Shown here: piece after piece, positions 19,021-63,141 of the stretch
How the letters are laid out: each line of letters opens with the position of its first letter
Position numbering within the stretch: the first letter of the stretch is position 1
From: Candidatus Aminicenantia bacterium
Lineage (GTDB): Bacteria; Acidobacteriota; Aminicenantia; Aminicenantales; Saccharicenantaceae
Direction of reading: 5' to 3'
DNA length: 64,000 nt
Assembly (NCBI GenBank): GCA_041479905.1
Contig: JBGOYY010000010.1
Location: forward strand, 1,370 to 65,369
The notes under the pieces: generated by a model
Told to the model about the DNA's origin: nothing
Database searches by the model: none
The model's input: only the letters and a program-made list of their open reading frames with translations
Program-made: the position numbers and the translations under genes

Positions 19021-19090
19021 GATTAACCAAAACCTTTGCAGTATGCCCCGCGACTTGCCGCGGGGCATACTGCAAAGGTTTTGGTTAATC
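19021..19090. repeat. Perfect 32-bp-stem / 6-nt-loop hairpin (foldback)
   Basis: GATTAACCAAAACCTTTGCAGTATGCCCCGCG-acttgc-CGCGGGGCATACTGCAAAGGTTTTGGTTAATC, checked base by base. Confidence 0.9.
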
Positions 19091-19131: not shown

Positions 19132-20555
19132 CCGAATAGACATCGTGAACAGTAAAACCATAAGGACATCGTGAACACTTAGAGGAATCGCCTACACTTC
19201 TTCCGAAATCGATCGGAAGGAGAAGGCGATCATGAAAGAGCGATGTGAATATGAAATCCGGCTCAACGCCATTCGAATCTATGAAGAAACCGGTCGGTTC
19301 GGCCACGCCGTGGAAAGTGTCCATCGAAGCCGGGGTTGGCTCTCCAAATGGCTCCGTCGCTATCGCAAGTTCGGTCTCGCTGGACTTCGTGACCAAAGTC
19401 GGGTGGCGAAACATATCCCTCATCAAACGCCGGAGTCTTTGGTCCGGAAGATCTTGGCCCTGCGCAACGAGTTGGCGGCCCACAAGACCCGCCGCACCGC
19501 CTTCGCCGGCATCGGCGCCGAGACGATCCATCATGAGCTCCATGACCGGGGTGTTCGTCATCTCCCGGTCATCTCGACCATTGAAAAGATCCTGGCCCGG
19601 GCCGGCAAGACGAAAAAGGTCAAGGTCAAGCGTACTTCCGGTGGGCCGCCCTATCCATACGTTCGAGCCCGAAAGATGGGTGATCTCCAGCAAACCGACT
19701 TGGTCGGTCCCCGCTATCTGCGAGGACCCCGGGGAATCACTCGGTTCTATTCCTTCCACACCATCGATGTCATCGGCCAAACGGTCTCGGCCAGCCAGTT
19801 CCCCGATAAGCAGACAATCTCGCTCTGCCGCCATCTCGTTGATTCCTGGCGATCTATGGGACTTCCCAGAGTCGCTCAGATGGACAACGAGATGTCTGCG
19901 TCGGGAGGCGGCCGCTATCGCCACAGCCTCTCCCAGGTCATCCGGTTGCATCTTCTCTTCGGCATCCATCTTGTCTTCATTCCGAAGGGGGAGCCAGGCC
20001 GCAACGCGACCGTGGAGAGCTTCAACAACACTTGGCAGATACGGGTCCTGCGGCACCGCTGCGCCAATCTTTGGGCCGTTCGGCGTTACAGCGATCGATT
20101 CCTCGAGTATTATCACGTCCGGAAGCCCAGCCGGAGTCTCACCGTGGCCGACCATGGAACGCGACTTCCCGGGGTCCTCCGAGATCAACTCTGGGCGACT
20201 CTCCGTCATCTGCCCATCGGCTTTACTATCGATCCATACTTTGACGCCCGGGGTCATCCGGCCCTTCCTTTTGCCAAAGGCTTGGTCTCTTGGGTTCGCA
20301 AGGTCGATGCCCACGGTTGTATCGAGTTCAACGGCGCCGAATACTTCATCCGCCGGAAACTGGAAAGACAGTACGTCGTGGCGACGCTCTCGACGTACCA
20401 CCGTAGAGTCTTCGTCAAATTTGAGGGAAAAATTATCAAGATGTTTCCATTTCCGTTTGTCGGAAAGACTGTTGATCCGATCGCTTGATCCGTCAAGTGT
20501 TCACGATGTCCTTACGGTTGGAAGCATTAGAAAACTGTTCGCGATGTCCTTACGG
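19132..20555 (+). mobile_element. Apparently intact insertion sequence (about 1.4 kb) with a single rve-type transposase and two copies of a roughly 16-18-bp subterminal repeat at each end
   Basis: Left end: TAGACATCGTGAACAG (19137-19152) and TAAGGACATCGTGAACAC (19161-19178). Right end, inverted: GTGTTCACGATGTCCTTA (20497-20514) and CTGTTCGCGATGTCCTTA (20535-20552). Exact termini and any target duplication were not resolved. Confidence 0.7.
19232..20488 (+). CDS. DDE transposase with an N-terminal HTH and an integrase-core (rve) domain, IS481-like / IS3 superfamily
   Basis: 418 aa. Candidate catalytic triad context: QTDLVGP, AQMDNEMS, NATVESFNNTW. Confidence 0.8.
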   Translation: MKERCEYEIRLNAIRIYEETGRFGHAVESVHRSRGWLSKWLRRYRKFGLAGLRDQSRVAKHIPHQTPESLVRKILALRNELAAHKTRRTAFAGIGAETIHHELHDRGVRHLPVISTIEKILARAGKTKKVKVKRTSGGPPYPYVRARKMGDLQQTDLVGPRYLRGPRGITRFYSFHTIDVIGQTVSASQFPDKQTISLCRHLVDSWRSMGLPRVAQMDNEMSASGGGRYRHSLSQVIRLHLLFGIHLVFIPKGEPGRNATVESFNNTWQIRVLRHRCANLWAVRRYSDRFLEYYHVRKPSRSLTVADHGTRLPGVLRDQLWATLRHLPIGFTIDPYFDARGHPALPFAKGLVSWVRKVDAHGCIEFNGAEYFIRRKLERQYVVATLSTYHRRVFVKFEGKIIKMFPFPFVGKTVDPIA

Positions 20556-35236: not shown

Positions 35237-35261
35237 AGAACGCAATCAAAAAGAGCAAGAA

Positions 35262-35342
35262 GGGGTCAGACCTACACAATTACGCATGTCGGGCAATGAA
35301 GAAAGCAGCAGAGCTCATGCGTAATTGAGTACGTCAGACCCC
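35262..35342. other. Long imperfect hairpin (27-nt arms, 27-nt loop) in the wzc-cpsB intergenic region
   Basis: Left arm GGGGTCAGACCTACACAATTACGCATG; right arm CATGCGTAATTGAGTACGTCAGACCCC. There are 3 mismatches by eye. Confidence 0.7.
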
Positions 35343-35367
35343 TAAGAGAAAACCCCAAAGAGAAGAT

Positions 35368-45138: not shown

Positions 45139-45525
45139 ATGAAAAAAGTCATCACCTACGGCACGTTCGACCTGATCCACCGCGGGCACATCAATATCCT
45201 GCGCCGGGCCAAGGCCATGGGCGACTACCTCATCGTGGCCCTGTCGACCGACGAGTTCAACGCCGGCAAGGGCAAAGAAGTCTACTACACCTACGAGGAG
45301 CGCAAGCAGATCCTCGAGGCCATCAAGTACGTCGACGAGGTCATCCCGGAAACGCGCTGGGAGCAAAAGGTCGATGACGTCGTCAAGAACGGCGTCTCGG
45401 TCTTCGTCATCGGCGAAGATTGGAAGGGGAAGTTCGACTTCCTCACGCCCTACTGCGAGGTCATCTACCTGCCCCGTACCGAAGGCATCTCGACGACCCA
45501 GATCAAAAACGACCTCAAGAAATAA
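45139..45525 (+). CDS. tagD: Glycerol-3-phosphate cytidylyltransferase
   Basis: 128 aa: VITYGTFDLIHRGHINILRRAKAMGDYLIVALSTDEFN...RTEGISTT. Confidence 0.88.
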   Translation: MKKVITYGTFDLIHRGHINILRRAKAMGDYLIVALSTDEFNAGKGKEVYYTYEERKQILEAIKYVDEVIPETRWEQKVDDVVKNGVSVFVIGEDWKGKFDFLTPYCEVIYLPRTEGISTTQIKNDLKK

Positions 45526-45702
45526 GGTTCTTCGCCTGATTTCGGGGAATATCCCACGGCAGTGAATACCGCCCCTTTCCCCCCGGCCCCCGGGAACCAG
45601 TCCCGGCGGTTCCCCCATCGCCAAGCGCTGGGTCCCCCTCCGCTACGGGGGTCTTCAGGGCGGCATTCACTGCCGTGATTCCCCGAAAACGGCGGAAGAA
45701 CC
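45526..45702. repeat. Structured GC-rich element, copy A: a roughly 45-bp imperfect outer stem enclosing a conserved core of about 80 nt
   Basis: The outer arms 45526-45574 and 45658-45702 are complementary (GGTTCTTCGCC..TTTCGGGGAAT..CACGGCAGTGAATACCGCCC vs GGGCGGCATTCACTGCCGTG..ATTCCCCGAAA..GGCGGAAGAACC). The core 45576-45653 matches 61825-61904. Confidence 0.8.
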
Positions 45703-45725: not shown

Positions 45726-48700
45726 TCATTTGATTGTGACCAGCGCGCCGGCGGAGTAGGCCGCGAACTCGGGGGCGTACATCGACTGGAGCGACGCCGG
45801 CGCGGCCTTGAACGTCCCGGCCATGGCGCAGCGCATCCGGTGCTTGAGCGTGTACTCGCCCTCCGGCAGCCATTCGACGAAGAAGTTCGTCCCACTGTCG
45901 CGGATCTCCTCGTAGCGGACGAGCCCCAGGTCCCACTTGTAGCCCGACGTGAGCGTCACCGGCTCGCACCCCGACGGCCGCGGGTCCCTCAAGTGGACGT
46001 ATTCGGCCTGATGGCGGGCCCGGATCGCGAGCTGGGCCTCGATCTCGTCGCCCACGGCGAGCGGCGTGCCTTCCGCGAGCGGCTTGAGGACGACCTCCTC
46101 GCCCTTCTTCTCCCGCTTGAAATAGGTCCGTTCGACCGCGAACAGGTCGCCGTCGCCCTTCTCGGGCATCCTCTCGGTGCTGAAGTGCCAGGTCGCGCTG
46201 GCGAAGGCCATGCCTTTGCCTTCTTTTGAGACCCGCACCGTGGCGCACTCCGGCCCCATTTTATCGCCCGGGACGACCAGCTGGTTTTTCTTGCCGGTGT
46301 ACTTGTCCGGCTCGAAGAGGAATACAGTCTTCGTGCCGCAGGCCTCGGCCGCGACCGACTCCCGGACGCCCAGCGCGCCGGTCTTCTTCAGGAAATACGC
46401 CACCGAGTAGATGACTTCGGACGTGGCCCGGGTCGATTTCCAGTGGTTGAGCTTCTTGTTAAGGAAAAGCCATTGGACGAGCCCCTCGCTCCGCGCGTCC
46501 GCCGGCATGAGCTCCATGAGCGTCCGCAGGGCGAAGGCGTGGGTTTCGATCGTGTCGTTGTACCAGAGCCAGCCGCGGTCCTCCGGCGCCCAGCTCGTGC
46601 CGCCGTCGACGGTCGTCTTGGCGCTGTCCATGACGCTCGCCCAGACGAGGGCCGCGTCCTTCGGCCGTACCGCCCGCTTCAACGTAAGTGACAGGTATCC
46701 CTTGAGATAGGGGGCGTGCTCCTTCCAGTGCTTGAACGAGAAGTCGAGCATCTGCTTCCGATCGGCGTCGGTAAAGACGCCGCCCGTCCACGACGCGTCG
46801 GGGAAATTGCTGATCGTGTAGTTGAGGAAGGTGACGAATTCCCAGCCCGTATCGTGGGCCATCATCGTCGACACGATCTCGTCGAGGTAATGCTGGTGCA
46901 GGTAGGCGAAGGCCCTGGCCACCGCCTCCTTAGGCACGTCGACGCCGAACTCGAGCGCCTTGGAAAAGCCCTGGACGATGTAGAGGGTCATGTAGGGCGA
47001 CGGCGGTCCGCCCGGCCACCACGGGAAGGCGCCGAGCGACGTCTGGGCCTTGAGGAGCTTGGCCAGCGACGATTCGCGCTGGGCCTTGGCCACGCGTGGG
47101 TCGAGCACCTTCGCCGCGCCAAAACCCGCGTCCTTGCCGCCCTGCGCCGTTTCGAGCCAGGGCGTCTCCTCGAGGGCCATCTTCCGGTTCGGGTCGGCGG
47201 CGTCGAACGTTTCGTAGACCGTTTCCCGTTTACTCAGGGCCTGGGCCATCCGCGCGACCTGCGGGTATTTATCGTAGAGGCTCGTCAGGATGCCCGTCGA
47301 CAGGAAGCGGTTGAGCGTCTGCTCCGTGCACTCGTAGGGATAGTTGATGAGATAGGGCAGGGCTTCGAGGAGCCCGTAGAAAAGCTGGGCGTCCACGGTG
47401 ACCACGAGCTGTTCGTTGATACGCGTCGGGTCGTCCGTCTTGGCCAGGTCGTCGAACCTGAGTTCGCGCGGCTTGCCCTCCTTGACCGTCACGAACCGCG
47501 ACTGGACGAGGTGCATCCGCCCCGGAAGGACCGGGAGCGGCCTGAGCTCTCCGTCTGATAGAGCGCCGGATTTCGCCACGACCTTGAAGGCGACCGTCCC
47601 GACGCGTGCCGGCGCGAGGAGCGGGAAGACGACGGCCGCCCCGCCTCCCGCCGCGACGCTGAACGCCCTGGCCGGAACGCTCGCCGGCAGTCCGAAGGCC
47701 GGGGCCAGGTTCTCGTTCGTCAGCGGGTCGTAGATCTCGAGAGAAACGTCGCCCGCGAGCGCCGCGACCCCGGCGTTGTTGACCATCACCCGGAGCTCGG
47801 CCTTGTCGCCTTCGCGGAAGAAGCGCGGCAGGTACGGCCGGACCATGAGGTCCTTGACCGTCCGGGCTTCTGTCTCGAGCGTCCCGCCCAGAAGGTCCCG
47901 CGTAACGCCATGCACGAAGACGCGCCAGCCCGTCACGGAATCGGGCACGGTGAACTCGATCGTCGCCGTCCCGTCCGCCCCCGTGAGCAGGTGGGGCTGC
48001 CAGAAAGCGGTCTCGGCGAAATTCGAGCGGAGCTGCGGCTGCGCTTCTTGCCCGACGATCACTGCCGCCTCTTCTTTCGCCGACGCACTATCACTCATGG
48101 AAGCGGATTTGGCCATTTGGGGCGAGGACATTCTCTCTTCGACGATGCCCCCCAGGACGCCGCCGACGACACCGCCCAGGACGCCGCCCTCGACGCCGCC
48201 CTCGACGCCGCCGCGCATCCGGCCGCCCGGGCCCCCGATCCCATAGCCGTCGAGCCCGAAGAGCTTGTCCGGATTGAAGGTGGGGTAGCCGGGGACGCGG
48301 TTCCAGTCATCATCGAAAGTGAAAGACATTGGGGCCGTCCCGAGCGCGGCGTCCCACCAGGCCGTGCCCGTCCGTCCGGGATAGAGGCCCAGCAGGCGCG
48401 GCGGCCGGTGCGGTGCGAAGAGGTCGAGGCTCCGGTCGTACATGTAGGCCAGGAGCTCAGCCGCGCCTTGGACGGCCGTTTTCCCGTCCGGAGTCTTGAC
48501 CGTCATGCGCCAGGTCTCCCGGCCTCCGGGAGTGAGCTTATCGCGGAACGTGGAGAAGGAGATCCCGAGCTCCTTGTTGTCCCAGGGTACGAAGACCGAG
48601 GCCTCTTCGCTCATGAACTGGTGGTCGCGGACGGCCGTGACGCGGGCGCCGAAGCCGCCCCTCAGGTCTTCCGTGACGGGCATGTCGATGATGCCGCCGT

Positions 48701-60018: not shown

Positions 60019-61782
60019 GTGGCCGGCGCGGCCGTCCTGGCCGGAGGCCTCATCTTCCCGGGTCCGACTACGATTTCCGGCCCTCGGGCTGTTCTGGTCT
60101 CTCCTCAGTCCCCCCGCCCGGGCGGGCACCTGCGCGTCCTGGTCGCCTTCGAAGCCGACGCCGCCAAGGTCCAGGCCTTTCTCCGCGGGCCGGCGGGCGC
60201 CCTCGAACCCCTCAAGATGAAGAGGGGAGGGGGGCCTCCGTTCTGGGTCTCAGCTGAGTTTTCGGCCGGTCTGGCGGGGTCTTACGCCTTGATGCTCAAA
60301 GAGGGCCGGGACGAATGGCAGGCGCAGACCATCGAAGTTTCGGCGGGCGGCGCCCCGAAGGCCGGTCTGGCCGGGGGCGCGCTCGGCGCGAAGGGCTGGT
60401 CGTGGGCCGAAGAAAGCCTCTACGCCGCCTGGATCGAGGCGCTCTTCGCCGAAGCGGACGAGCGCTCGTCCTGGAAAGCCCTCCACGAGGTCATGCGCGA
60501 CCCGGCGCGGAACATCCTCCACGACCATTTCGGTCTCGGCGAGGACGAGGCCTCCGGCCCGAACGCCCTCGTCATGACCCCGGACTGCGCCGACAACCCC
60601 TATTTCCTGCGGGCTTACTTCGCCTGGAAGCTCGGCCTGCCCTTCGGCTTCCACGAAACGAGCTGGGGGACTCGGGAGCAGGCCCCGCGCGGCCTGCGCT
60701 GGCGGACCGAAGCTCCCGCGACCGGGCCCGACAAATTCAGGCGCCTGCTGGCCGTGGTCAAGAACATCGTCCACGCCGGGAACGGCAGGACCGCGCTTCG
60801 GGCGGACGAAGCCGACTATTACCCGCTCCCCCTCACCAGGAAGGCCCTCAAACCGGGCACGGTCTATGCCGACCCGTACGGGCACACTCTGACGATCGTC
60901 CGGTGGATCCCTCAGACCGCGAAGCGCCCGGGTTTGCTCCTGGCCGTCGACGCCCAGCCCGACGGAACGATCGGGGTCAAGAGATTCTGGAAGGGGAATT
61001 TCCTGTTCGCGACGGAGGATGTCATCGGCGAGCCGGGTTTCAAGGCCTTCCGCCCGATCGCCCTCGAGAACAGCCGGCCGCGCCTCCTGACGAACCGGGA
61101 GATCGCCGCGGACCTCGACTTCGGCGATTTTTCGCTCGAGCAGGAGAAGATGACGGGCGACGCGTTCTACGCGGCGATGGAGAAGCTCATCAACCCCGAG
61201 CCCCTCGACGCCGCGGCCGCCTTCGAAGACCTCTTCCAGGCCCTCCACGAACAGCTCATCGTCCGCGTCGACTCGGTGGCGAACGGCGAGGAGTTCATGA
61301 AGGCGCACCCGGGCACGGTCATCCCCATGCCGTCGGGCCCGGCCGTTTACCAGACCCTGGGGCAGTGGGAGGATTTCTCGACGCCGAACCGCGATCTGCG
61401 CCTGCTCATCGCCATCGACACCATCCTAGAATTCCCGGACAAGGTCGCCGCGAATCCCGGAGCCTATGACATATCCGGAAAGAAGACGCCCGACGGGGTC
61501 CGGAGCGGGCTTCTCGCCCTCCGGAAAAAATTGGCGGCCGGCCTCTCCATCACCTACCGGAGGTCGGACGGGGCGTCCCGGGTCCTGACGCTCGAGGACA
61601 TCTTCGCCCGGCGGGACGCCTTCGAGATGAGCTACAACCCGAACGACAGCGCCGAGGTCCGCTGGGGGGCCCCCGAGGGGAGCGAGGAGCGCTCGACCGC
61701 GCGCCGCCGGGCCCCCGCTTCCCAATTCGAGAAAATGAAGGCCCTCCGGCCCTGGTTTCACAAACGTCTAAGGCCCTCTTGA
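60019..61782 (+). CDS. Hypothetical (probably exported) protein
   Basis: 587-aa ORF with strong GC3 bias and a GTG start. The upstream in-frame RRRLLWAVAGAAVLAGG suggests the true start may be a non-canonical codon slightly upstream. I recognise no family motif. Confidence 0.6.
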   Translation: MAGAAVLAGGLIFPGPTTISGPRAVLVSPQSPRPGGHLRVLVAFEADAAKVQAFLRGPAGALEPLKMKRGGGPPFWVSAEFSAGLAGSYALMLKEGRDEWQAQTIEVSAGGAPKAGLAGGALGAKGWSWAEESLYAAWIEALFAEADERSSWKALHEVMRDPARNILHDHFGLGEDEASGPNALVMTPDCADNPYFLRAYFAWKLGLPFGFHETSWGTREQAPRGLRWRTEAPATGPDKFRRLLAVVKNIVHAGNGRTALRADEADYYPLPLTRKALKPGTVYADPYGHTLTIVRWIPQTAKRPGLLLAVDAQPDGTIGVKRFWKGNFLFATEDVIGEPGFKAFRPIALENSRPRLLTNREIAADLDFGDFSLEQEKMTGDAFYAAMEKLINPEPLDAAAAFEDLFQALHEQLIVRVDSVANGEEFMKAHPGTVIPMPSGPAVYQTLGQWEDFSTPNRDLRLLIAIDTILEFPDKVAANPGAYDISGKKTPDGVRSGLLALRKKLAAGLSITYRRSDGASRVLTLEDIFARRDAFEMSYNPNDSAEVRWGAPEGSEERSTARRRAPASQFEKMKALRPWFHKRLRPS

Positions 61783-61946
61783 CGCGCCTTGTACCGCCCG
61801 TTTTGGCGGGGATGGGGGCCACGCCTATCCCCCGGCCCCCCGGGCACCAGTCCCGACGGTTCCCCCGCCGCGGAAGCGGCGGGTCCCCCTCCGCTACGGG
61901 GGCTAGACATGGCCCCCATCCCTGCCCGGGCGGCACAACGCGCGCC
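61781..61946. repeat. Structured GC-rich element, copy B: a roughly 40-bp imperfect outer stem enclosing the same conserved core
   Basis: The outer arms 61781-61821 and 61910-61946 are complementary (..GCGCCTTGTACCGCCCG..GGCGGGGATGGGGGCCA vs TGGCCCCCATCCCTGCC..CGGGCGGCACAACGCGCGCC). The core 61825-61904 matches 45576-45653. Confidence 0.8.
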
Positions 61947-62022
61947 GGAAGAAGGCGTAAAAAAACGGCTCTTGATTTCCGGGCCGGTTTGGGCTAAGAA
62001 AAGGGATATTAAGGAGGGCGCG

Positions 62023-63141
62023 ATGCGCAAGAAAGGCTTTAGGGGAGTTCTGGCTTTTCTCTTTGCCGCGGCGGCCTTTCTGCCCGGAGGGCTCTCGGCC
62101 CAGGAGACGTCTGCCGAAGCGGAGTCCTACCGGTCGTTCAGCCCTTTCCCGATCCTGATGTACGATTCGGACATCGGCTTCGGCTACGGCGGCCGGGTCA
62201 AGTTCGTCGATTATTTCAAGAAAAAAGAATCCCTGGACCTCATCCTGTTCAACTCGACGAAAGGGGAACGCTGGTACGTTTTTTCCTTCTCCATCCCCGA
62301 CCTCGAGATCCGTCAGGGAAAGCGCTACGGCCTGTCCTTCGACCTCAAGGCCGAATACGACAAGTTCCTCAACTACAGCTTCTACGGCATCGGCGCCGGG
62401 ACGTCCGCGGCGAACGAGACGGTCTTCACCCACGAGACGATCAACGTTCCCCTCACCTTCGGCCGCGGCCTGACGCCCCAACTCGTCGTCGAGGCCGCCT
62501 ACGTCCTGCGCTGGATCCGGTACGCCGAACCCCGGGAAGGCCCCTTCCAGGAGGAGATCGCCGGGCTCGCCGGCCGGGGCCGCTTGTTCGTGCCCTACCT
62601 CTCGTTTATCCTGAAGTACGACACTTCCGACAGCCAGATCCACCCGACCCGCGGCTTCCGCTTCATCCTTCAGGACGACTGGGCCGCGGGGTTCATGGGC
62701 AGCCGCGACGCGGCCTTCAACCGCCTGACGATCGACCTCCGCAAGTACCAGCGCATTTTCGGCGAAAAGGACGTCTTCGCCGTCCGGGCCCTGGCCCAGT
62801 ACGTCGGCGGCGGCGAAATCCCCCTCTTCGACCACGCCTCCCTCGGCGGCGGAAATACCCTGACGGCCATGCGCGGCTACGGGCTCAACCGCTTCCTCGA
62901 CCGCGGCAAGTTCCTGGTCAACGCCGAGTACCGCTTTCCGCTCGTCGGACGTCTCGGGGGAAACGTTTTCTGCGACACGGGGACCGTCTGGCCCTCGCTC
63001 GGCGGCATCGACCTCCGGAATATCGCCTTCGACTCCGGCGTCGGGCTCAGGTTCTACATGCCGGACTTCGTCGTCCGCGTGGACGTGGCCTGGAGCAAGG
63101 AAGGAATGGGCCTCTACTTCAATTTCGGCCACATTTTCTGA
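62023..63141 (+). CDS. Omp85/BamA-family (surface antigen D15) beta-barrel protein without recognisable POTRA domains
   Basis: ATG 62023 follows AAGGAGGG. Has a signal peptide (FRGVLAFLFAAAAFLPGGLSAQE), ..LGGGNTLTAMRGYGLNRF.. and the C-terminus ..GLYFNFGHIF. Confidence 0.7.
   Translation: MRKKGFRGVLAFLFAAAAFLPGGLSAQETSAEAESYRSFSPFPILMYDSDIGFGYGGRVKFVDYFKKKESLDLILFNSTKGERWYVFSFSIPDLEIRQGKRYGLSFDLKAEYDKFLNYSFYGIGAGTSAANETVFTHETINVPLTFGRGLTPQLVVEAAYVLRWIRYAEPREGPFQEEIAGLAGRGRLFVPYLSFILKYDTSDSQIHPTRGFRFILQDDWAAGFMGSRDAAFNRLTIDLRKYQRIFGEKDVFAVRALAQYVGGGEIPLFDHASLGGGNTLTAMRGYGLNRFLDRGKFLVNAEYRFPLVGRLGGNVFCDTGTVWPSLGGIDLRNIAFDSGVGLRFYMPDFVVRVDVAWSKEGMGLYFNFGHIF

Follow-up and report, generated by a model that had tools for sequence, protein, structure and literature searches.

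The 64,000-nucleotide stretch of a Candidatus Aminicenantia genome analyzed here (hereafter the window, at its full length) carries two long foldbacks, copies A and B, each with a GC-rich core of 77-78 nt at its tip (Table 1). Copy A lies between two converging open reading frames (ORFs): upstream, a tagD-like gene whose stop codon occupies 45523-45525 and, on the opposite strand, an ORF ending at 45726. The preliminary description of this DNA had named these genes tagD and A2M, and we indeed found a cytidylyltransferase domain (PF01467, ending at 45525) in the first and an alpha-2-macroglobulin bMG10 domain in the second. Copy B is flanked by a 587-aa ORF ending at 61782 and by a gene of the Omp85 family starting at 62023. 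The same description had noticed two similar cores of about 80 nt at hairpin tips and had read the whole tagD/A2M gap as one foldback; our covariance-model hits, fold predictions and gene calls bore out both points.

Folding and Anatomy of the Two Window Copies

Copy A folded as a single hairpin whose arms pair over about 45 bp, with an RNA minimum free energy of -107.5 kcal/mol for the plus strand and -118.5 kcal/mol for the minus strand (z about -9 versus shuffled controls). The corresponding values for copy B were -115.1 and -134.2 kcal/mol (z from -7 to -9), the minus strand being 11-19 kcal/mol more stable than the plus strand in both copies. As already proposed, the arms of A and B could not be aligned with each other, while each pair of arms is self-complementary.

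The core is asymmetric and enclosed by the two arms of a long imperfect palindrome. On the plus strand, it consists of a C-tract of 13-15 nt, CCCCC(C)GG(C)CCCCC(C), followed by three adjacent stem-loops in the RNAalifold consensus: Ha (GGAACC[AGTCCCGNC]GGTTCC), Hb (CCC-GYC...GRC-GGG, with a variable top of 3-26 nt) and Hc (CCCCC[TCCGCTAC]GGGGG). The G+C content of class-1 cores is about 77%. A 21-mer, GGTCCCCCTCCGCTACGGGGG, is identical in the two cores and occurs exactly twice in the window, against 0.01 occurrences expected by chance, and the covariance-model scan of the window found cores A and B and no third. The small internal hairpin that had been singled out as divergent does differ in sequence and is kept as a hairpin (catcGCcaaGCgctg in A, cGCCGCggaaGCGGCg in B). 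The helix GGGAACC/GGTTCCC, said to be shared, is perfect in A and has one mismatch in B (GGGCACC). Since the length of Hb changes out of frame among copies, an ORF is impossible in the element. The minus strand of both cores carries five G-tracts of 3-6 G in about 75 nt and could form a G-quadruplex, the plus strand being the matching C-rich strand.

Empty Sites in Relatives and Target Duplication

Copy A is of type 1, a subfamily of about 180-195 bp, and its ends GGTTCTTC...GAAGAACC form terminal inverted repeats (TIRs); full-length homologues of it are present in L075 and L023. Querying metagenomes with the tagD-like protein yielded a contig (L111) with an empty site, in which the tagD stop codon is directly followed by the end of A2M; its tagD-like protein is 97% identical to that of the window. 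L111 reads ...ctcaAGAAATAGgcgtcccgccctctctca... where the window reads ...ctcaAGAAATAA[177 bp]AGAATTAAacgtcccgccctctctca..., and the two differ solely by the 177-bp element and a repeated 8-bp target, present once in L111 (AGAAATAG) and twice around copy A (AGAAATAA and AGAATTAA). An 87% relative (L112) likewise lacks copy A.

Copy B belongs to type 2, with the arrangement ...GCCGCCCG-TTTT-GGCAGTGATGGGGGCCATGCAT[core]CTATGCATGGCCCCCATCACTGCCCGGGCGGC... and a conserved four-base bulge. For this locus, we collected homologs of the downstream Omp85 protein and compared their contigs. The element was recovered at the same position in relatives whose Omp85 proteins are 93, 91, 87, and 84% identical. 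At 81% identity (L198), a 46-nt spacer reads ...gcccTTCTTGAttcacgggccgg... where the window reads ...gcccTCTTGA[186 bp]CTCTTGAtttccgggccgg..., the target TTCTTGA being present once in this empty site and CTCTTGA twice around copy B. Two relatives at 77% (L199 and L200) are also without copy B, and the simpler reading would be an insertion in the ancestor of the closer relatives. Just outside the hairpin of copy B, GGAAGAAGGCG is the inverted complement of the ancestral left flank. The duplicated targets of A and B both contain the stop codon of the upstream gene, and no palindrome was found at the empty site of either L111 or L198.

Type-1 flanks resembled each other more than permuted pairs did (2 of 5000 permutations); the flanking 8-mers are A/T-rich and identical at 7-8 of 8 positions in L016, L014, L023, L058, L075, L086, and the window. 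When arms devoid of core were sought in 870 kb of the genomes matching the family, type 1 gave none and type 2 two weak fragments only. The arms thus belong to the element, never being found apart from the core, and the presence or absence of the element together with target duplication indicates that it arrives as DNA. As judged from these sequence comparisons, the mobile unit is the whole hairpin, arms and core together, and it inserts into A/T-rich sites, often at or next to a stop codon, with duplication of a target of about 8 bp.

Size, Distribution, and Gene Context of the Family

Exact scanning for the 21-mer, with one genome per species, returned at least 109 stretches in 31 assemblies among the matches listed, so that the pair in the window is no private duplication. 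One assembly has at least 25 loci, and genomes rich in the family include OY969696.1, the CAVSCD and CAZGJS assemblies, and that of the window. Nearly all of the listed matches are labelled Candidatus Aminicenantes or Acidobacteria, mostly as metagenome-assembled genomes, and the few other taxon labels look like mislabelling or mis-binning. We could align 92 distinct copies over the core, and a covariance model recovered about 103 full-length cores (E < 1e-7) in the 870 kb mentioned above. Eight of the cores found by the model lack the exact 21-mer and keep it with one or two changes; its conservation is therefore not merely an artefact of ascertainment. The other copies are 140-280 bp long, a typical element measuring about 140-200 bp, and nearly all sit at a hairpin tip, with the 21-mer lying 51-58 nt beyond the end of the 5' arm and 2-6 nt ahead of the start of the 3' arm.

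At the DNA level, the flanking genes of the window matched none of the first 109 loci listed, and no match to the family turned up among viral contigs, phage records, or plasmid records. As far as sampled, the family is restricted to Aminicenantes (Acidobacteriota). No known Rfam family was matched: the whole window gave no hits at gathering thresholds, and lenient scans of both copies and one class-2 locus (see below) gave only chance-level matches to generic long hairpins (miRNA precursors). In the full-text literature, we found no published account of Aminicenantes repeats and only general papers on transposable elements of this kind in Acidobacteria.

Crude gene calls on all loci gave 90 scorable cases, of which 83 were intergenic. 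The copies lie between convergent genes (27), between tandem genes with the same direction as the plus reading (25) or the opposite one (16), and between divergent genes (22, or 24%). Many copies, both window copies included, begin right after a stop codon.

Conservation and Covariation of the Core

Between loci, the core is 0.815 identical (over the 58 nt outside the ascertained 21-mer), whereas the 50-nt arms reach only 0.56-0.59, against a shuffled baseline of 0.52. Within a copy, the arms are nevertheless paired at 84% of positions by Watson-Crick pairs and at 8% by wobble pairs. Among the 92 related copies, 71 cells of the core alignment were changed on both sides of a helix, against 17.9 +/- 9.7 in shuffled alignments, and 98.3% of the cells were paired; the signal was lost when the partner was slid by one column. 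Both-side changes include A-U to G-C in Ha (14 copies) and, in Hb, G-C to A-U (17 copies) and U-A to C-G (40 copies). The suggestion of a structured element with covarying helices thus stands for the core, the covariation supporting pairing of either strand, as RNA or as single-stranded DNA alike. HDV-like, hammerhead, and tRNA-like topologies, threaded by eye on both strands, were rejected because the order of helices does not fit.

Inversion, Nesting, and Turnover

BLAST comparison of the first 109 loci listed revealed four pairs of orthologous loci in related species at which the element is inverted (L003/L059, L007/L080, L022/L052, and L077/L091). A fifth inverted pair, window/L191, was found separately, and two orthologous pairs are co-oriented (L077/L090 and L003/L084). 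In the cases followed base by base, the four-base bulge and mismatched positions near the stem base had moved to the other side. This switch of asymmetries near the stem base implies a flip at or near the termini rather than crossing-over inside the arms. Two public contigs (L001 and L191) end exactly inside the core of an orthologous element; assembly from short reads evidently stops at these hairpins or where a locus exists in both orientations.

Turnover at orthologous loci also takes the form of degraded elements or nested insertions. Type-2 stems often extend 8-16 bp into locus-specific sequence (0 of 1000 permutations), and Hb varies blockwise among orthologues with arms about 90% alike. 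In about 12 copies, Hb, or Ha and Hb together, is replaced by a 'class 2' module of about 80-100 nt, which has a covarying hairpin of its own and enters Hb in either orientation. This module, GATATTTCCCAGAA-hairpin-GGTCGCTCC...GCTCCCTGCC, was also met outside the core, in one case forming a divergent pair some 60 nt ahead of a gene start, and its A/T-rich 5' end could be a promoter. A palindromic miniature inverted-repeat transposable element (MITE) of 69 bp with 24-nt ends ATTCGGGACACAATACCAATTTCC stands alone in L021, while in L033 and L100 the same ends enclose a hairpin-plus-core unit at their centre.

The intergenic regions of Aminicenantes commonly contain a further family of hairpin repeats, GGGGACAYGTAC...GTACGTGTCCCC, which is absent from the window. 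In L193-L195 it stands in place of most of the copy-B orthologue, and it fits the GGGGWSAS motif of the TIRs that lie beside Y1 'TIRYT' transposases in Acidobacteria (PMC3733652).

Strand Bias of the Arms

Wobble-compatible mismatches in the arms favour one strand: 194 are wobble-compatible on the minus, G-rich strand versus 97 on the plus strand. The excess was recovered in every subfamily and persisted when identical contexts were counted once (179 versus 96) or when copies were counted (52 versus 14). The minus strand was also the better folding one in 87 of 91 copies. Given the random gene orientation and the flips at orthologous loci, this wobble bias is tied to the element itself, and it must reflect selection on, or exposure of, one particular strand. 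The loops of the small hairpins (TTC/GAA, CAAG/CTTG) were dropped as a one-strand signature, both orientations being found.

TABLE 1. Coordinates of the two elements, of other features of the window, and of related features in other contigs (positions refer to the window unless preceded by a contig handle).
Feature	Position	Strand	Basis or remark
Copy A, complete inserted element, 177 bp, hairpin with core at tip	45526-45702	+	Block absent from L111
Copy A, left TIR GGTTCTTCGCC	45526-45536	+	Common to type-1 copies beginning GGTTCTTCTCCC
Copy A, right TIR GGCGGAAGAACC	45691-45702	+	Terminal comparison
Copy A, left target-site duplication AGAAATAA	45518-45525	.	Holds tagD-like stop TAA (45523-45525)
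Copy A, right target-site duplication AGAATTAA	45703-45710	.	7/8 identical to left copy
Copy A, core	45577-45653	+ (C-rich as read)	Covariance-model hit, 93.2 bits
Copy A, core C-tract	45579-45591	+	Model coordinates and consensus structure
Copy A, core hairpin Ha	45592-45614	+	Model coordinates and consensus structure
Copy A, core variable hairpin Hb	45614-45632	+	Model coordinates and consensus structure
Copy A, core hairpin Hc	45634-45651	+	Model coordinates and consensus structure
Copy B, inserted block, 186 bp	61783-61968	+	193-bp indel versus L198 (neighbouring Omp85 81% identical)
Copy B, hairpin	61783-61944	+	Fold
Copy B, part common to other type-2 copies	61794-61934	+	Extent of homology
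Copy B, TTTT bulge	61801-61804	+	Fold
Copy B, 24-nt tail CCGGAAGAAGGCGTAAAAAAACGG, outside hairpin	61945-61968	+	Indel versus L198
Copy B, left direct repeat CTCTTGA	61776-61782	.	Holds stop TGA of upstream ORF (60019-61782)
Copy B, right direct repeat CTCTTGA	61969-61975	.	Comparison with L198
Copy B, core	61827-61904	+	Covariance-model hit, 86.5 bits
Copy B, core C-tract	61829-61841	+	Model coordinates
Copy B, core Ha	61842-61864	+	Model coordinates
Copy B, core Hb	61864-61883	+	Model coordinates
Copy B, core Hc	61885-61902	+	Model coordinates
ORF of 74 aa	5-229		Cut by window start
Insertion sequence (IS)-like unit	19156-20519		25-nt terminal inverted repeats (AACCATAAGGACATCGTGAACACTT)
ORF of 418 aa in IS-like unit	19232-20488	+	Sequence looks like a DDE/integrase-core transposase
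Perfect palindrome	19021-19090		32-bp arms, 6-nt loop; A/T-rich stretch adjoining IS-like unit
Imperfect palindrome	35261-35343		28-nt arms (89% complementary), 27-nt centre; A/T-rich intergenic stretch
Contig ends inside the core	L001:1446-1526, L191:1-56		Orthologous elements
69-bp palindromic MITE, alone	L021:2349-2417
L021-MITE ends enclosing hairpin-plus-core unit	L033:299-509, L100:7688-7964
Class-2 module, about 80 nt	L022:3650-3860, L056:7270-7345, L093:6120-6226, L197:520-700
GGGGACAYGTAC hairpin family	L067:1990-2040, L071:6440-6490, L193:2280-2410, L199:1090-1150, L200:1130-1160

Discussion

The observation of two related cores on two hairpins is real and highly non-random. Prokaryotic MITEs are defined by a size of 50-800 bp, TIRs, target-site duplications of 2-10 bp, and the absence of a transposase (PMC11602168). 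Both window copies are non-coding and of this size (177 bp for A, 186 bp for B), copy A has TIRs of the expected length of at least 10-15 bp (GGTTCTTCGCC and GGCGGAAGAACC), and the family has target duplications within this range as well as dispersed copies that are present or absent in relatives. We consider it probable (roughly 0.75) that the two window features are copies of one family of non-coding, non-autonomous, MITE-like DNA elements. The family is undescribed, the kind of element being already known.

Such an element would be moved by a transposase acting in trans, presumably DDE-like, which would make staggered cuts 8 bp apart. The ends GGTTCTTC...GAAGAACC of copy A would be the binding sites of the predicted enzyme, and the predicted autonomous partner would be a transposase gene enclosed by the ends GGTTCTTCTCCC...GGGAGAAGAACC and an 8-bp duplication. 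The IS-like unit of the window was tried as partner and rejected, its ends being unrelated to the hairpin elements. The core would be kept by purifying selection acting on propagation of the element, since it is still 81% identical where the arms have drifted to near-random similarity. The complementarity of the arms may persist because selection favours fold-back of one strand, or because the hairpin serves as template for its own conversion or repair. The strand that folds would be the G-rich one (minus in the window), as single-stranded DNA or RNA. Our best guess is that the core is a cis-acting structure needed for mobilisation or retention; we do not think that it is a host regulatory RNA.

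Several points weigh against the MITE-like reading. The outermost bases of copy B (CGCGCC... and ...AAAAACGG) are not inverted repeats, and its 24-nt tail lies outside the hairpin. A search of 1.29 Mb for an autonomous partner, with matching ends 0.6-3.5 kb apart and a credible duplication, found none. The subfamilies have unrelated termini, so that one enzyme recognising one TIR cannot explain all copies, and at least one of them, with ATTCGGGACAC ends, resembles a different MITE that has taken up the hairpin. Conservation is higher in the centre than at the ends, the opposite of what a canonical MITE shows. The difference in folding energy between strands is in part a trivial effect of the G-rich core, and the counts of mismatches and covarying cells come from related copies and are not independent events.

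The reversed conservation, the wobble bias, the flips, the stem extension, the use of Hb as an insertion hotspot, and the nesting together leave room for a mechanism of mobilisation that reads a folded strand. The conserved three-hairpin tip, and not the ends, would then be the cis-acting signal, and an enzyme would recognise the folded G-rich strand, as single-stranded DNA or as an RNA copy, and process the base of whatever stem is attached. This would account at once for the variable arms and termini, the strand-biased wobble, the flips in place, and the locus-specific growth of stems, and it would make the family a bacterial hairpin transposon, or an element resembling short interspersed elements (SINEs), of an undescribed kind. 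We regard such structure-dependent mobilisation as unlikely. If the reversed conservation, wobble bias, and flips are tied to movement, they would suggest that a folded single strand is recognised, and not the terminal sequences.

The other readings that we considered rank well below the MITE-like one. The core could be a structured non-coding RNA, either an independent small RNA or a cis-acting element of 3' untranslated regions (UTRs), such as a bidirectional terminator or a stabiliser of mRNA, with the arms as its basal stem. The compensatory changes in two of the three core helices would suit an RNA, as would the wobble-compatible mismatches and fold energies that favour one strand and the start of many copies, the window pair included, directly behind a stop codon. 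Covariation in a DNA palindrome, however, fits either strand, DNA or RNA, and the presence or absence of the element with target duplication speaks for arrival as DNA. A terminator or 3'-UTR element is expected to be oriented with the upstream gene and to avoid divergent spacers. Here the tandem contexts show a slight excess on the less well-folding strand (25 versus 16), 22 of the 90 copies lie between divergent genes, and the element is flipped between orthologous loci; this lack of orientation bias toward the neighbouring genes argues against a cis-acting role in mRNA. The scan for promoter-like or terminator-like sites found none at or beside either window copy, nor did it detect at either copy a short G+C-rich stem-loop followed by a T-run and oriented with the upstream gene, as expected of an intrinsic terminator, and Rfam offered no match. 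We hold an RNA gene or mRNA element to be quite improbable.

It had also been proposed that a small mobile element inserts into the loops of pre-existing terminator palindromes, in which case the core of about 80 nt would move alone. Mobility stands; the terminator palindromes do not, since the empty sites of both window copies are without palindrome and the whole hairpin is the indel. The nesting in L033 and L100, where the 69-bp MITE known alone from L021 carries a hairpin plus core at its centre, shows that insertion into the centre of a palindrome is not absurd, though the idea is wrong for the two window copies. The entry of class-2 modules into Hb in either orientation and the locus-specific extension of type-2 stems could be taken in the same sense, but the nested units are hairpins with their own arms and not bare cores, and arm sequences were not seen apart from the core. 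Movement of the core alone is in our view very improbable.

We give equally little credit to the idea that the elements are repetitive extragenic palindromes (REPs) or REPINs, moved by a domesticated Y1 transposase (RAYT or TIRYT) acting on a single-stranded hairpin. They are hairpin-forming intergenic repeats with strand asymmetry, and GTAG occurs in the Hc loop of the G-rich strand (CCCCC-GTAGCGGA-GGGGG). Transposition by Y1/HUH enzymes, as in IS200/IS605, leaves no target duplication, whereas duplications of 8 bp flank the insertions described here. Moreover, the GTAG lies in a loop and not at the foot of a palindrome of 20-40 bp, and the arms are variable and 40-80 bp long. The fragment at the window start, suggested earlier to be a possible RAYT-type Y1 transposase, gave no support to this reading: the 74-aa ORF has no Pfam or NCBIfam hit, and its homologs, of 71-124 aa, are without domains, one of them being annotated as 'putative transposase' at its source. 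Inverted REP units are known to be separated in some cases by a conserved, structured spacer, and long TIRs have been reported around Y1 'TIRYT' genes of Acidobacteria (PMC3733652), but the TIRYT motif is better fitted by the GGGGACAYGTAC hairpin family.

Finally, an invertible DNA switch, with the arms as inverted repeats of an inverton and the core as payload, might be read from the five inverted orthologous pairs, window/L191 among them, and from the two contigs that break exactly in the core, but it is scarcely probable because assembly breaks are expected at hairpins anyway, no promoter-like site was found in the class-1 core, of about 77% G+C, recombinase genes are not regularly present beside the element in the contexts inspected, and the flip takes in the arms themselves, in subfamilies with different ends alike.

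With the MITE-like reading preferred, the family adds an undescribed repeat to an uncultivated lineage that is widespread in sediment and groundwater. Its hairpins explain intergenic assembly breaks in these genomes, as in the two contigs that end inside the core, and provide a ready marker for insertion polymorphism at the strain level. In annotation, structure alone is no sufficient ground for calling hairpins of this family terminators or small RNAs.

Comparison With Known Systems

Bacterial MITEs that fold into long hairpins include Correia/NEMIS in Neisseria, ERIC/IRU in enterobacteria, and RUP in pneumococcus. Like the present family, they measure 100-200 bp, are non-coding and intergenic, and reach tens of copies per genome; they share with it TIRs, short target duplications, presence or absence among relatives, and the foldback of the whole element. 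Unlike in these systems, the centre is conserved here while the arms are near-random between subfamilies yet self-complementary, one core sits on hairpins with unrelated ends, and no parent IS is known.

DDE families of IS with 8-bp duplications and ends opening with GG(T/C)TCT, such as IS6/IS26 and ISL3, may be compared with copy A, whose ends open with GGTTCT. The A/T-rich targets are alike, the similarity covers only six bases, and no transposase gene with these ends was found.

Integron attC sites and the ends of IS200/IS605 are recombination sites read as folded single strands. The arms described here resemble them in that the structure of the stem is kept over its sequence, one strand is favoured, and extrahelical bulges are conserved (here the TTTT of type 2). 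They differ in the presence of target duplications and in having no integron or Y1 context, and we use the resemblance as an analogy for how the arms might be read and not as a claim of membership.

REP dimers, BIMEs, and REPINs are similar in that two inverted arms form one stem-loop, in being intergenic and often just downstream of genes, and in the GTAG motif. REP units are themselves conserved, are 20-40 bp long and carry GTAG or CGTC at the foot of the stem, whereas the arms here are variable and of 40-80 bp; no target duplication is expected from their Y1 transposases, in contrast to the 8-bp duplications of this family. The conserved spacer of REP dimers can itself hold small stem-loops, and such structured spacers, together with the long-TIR Y1 genes of Acidobacteria, are the nearest published parallels (PMC3733652).

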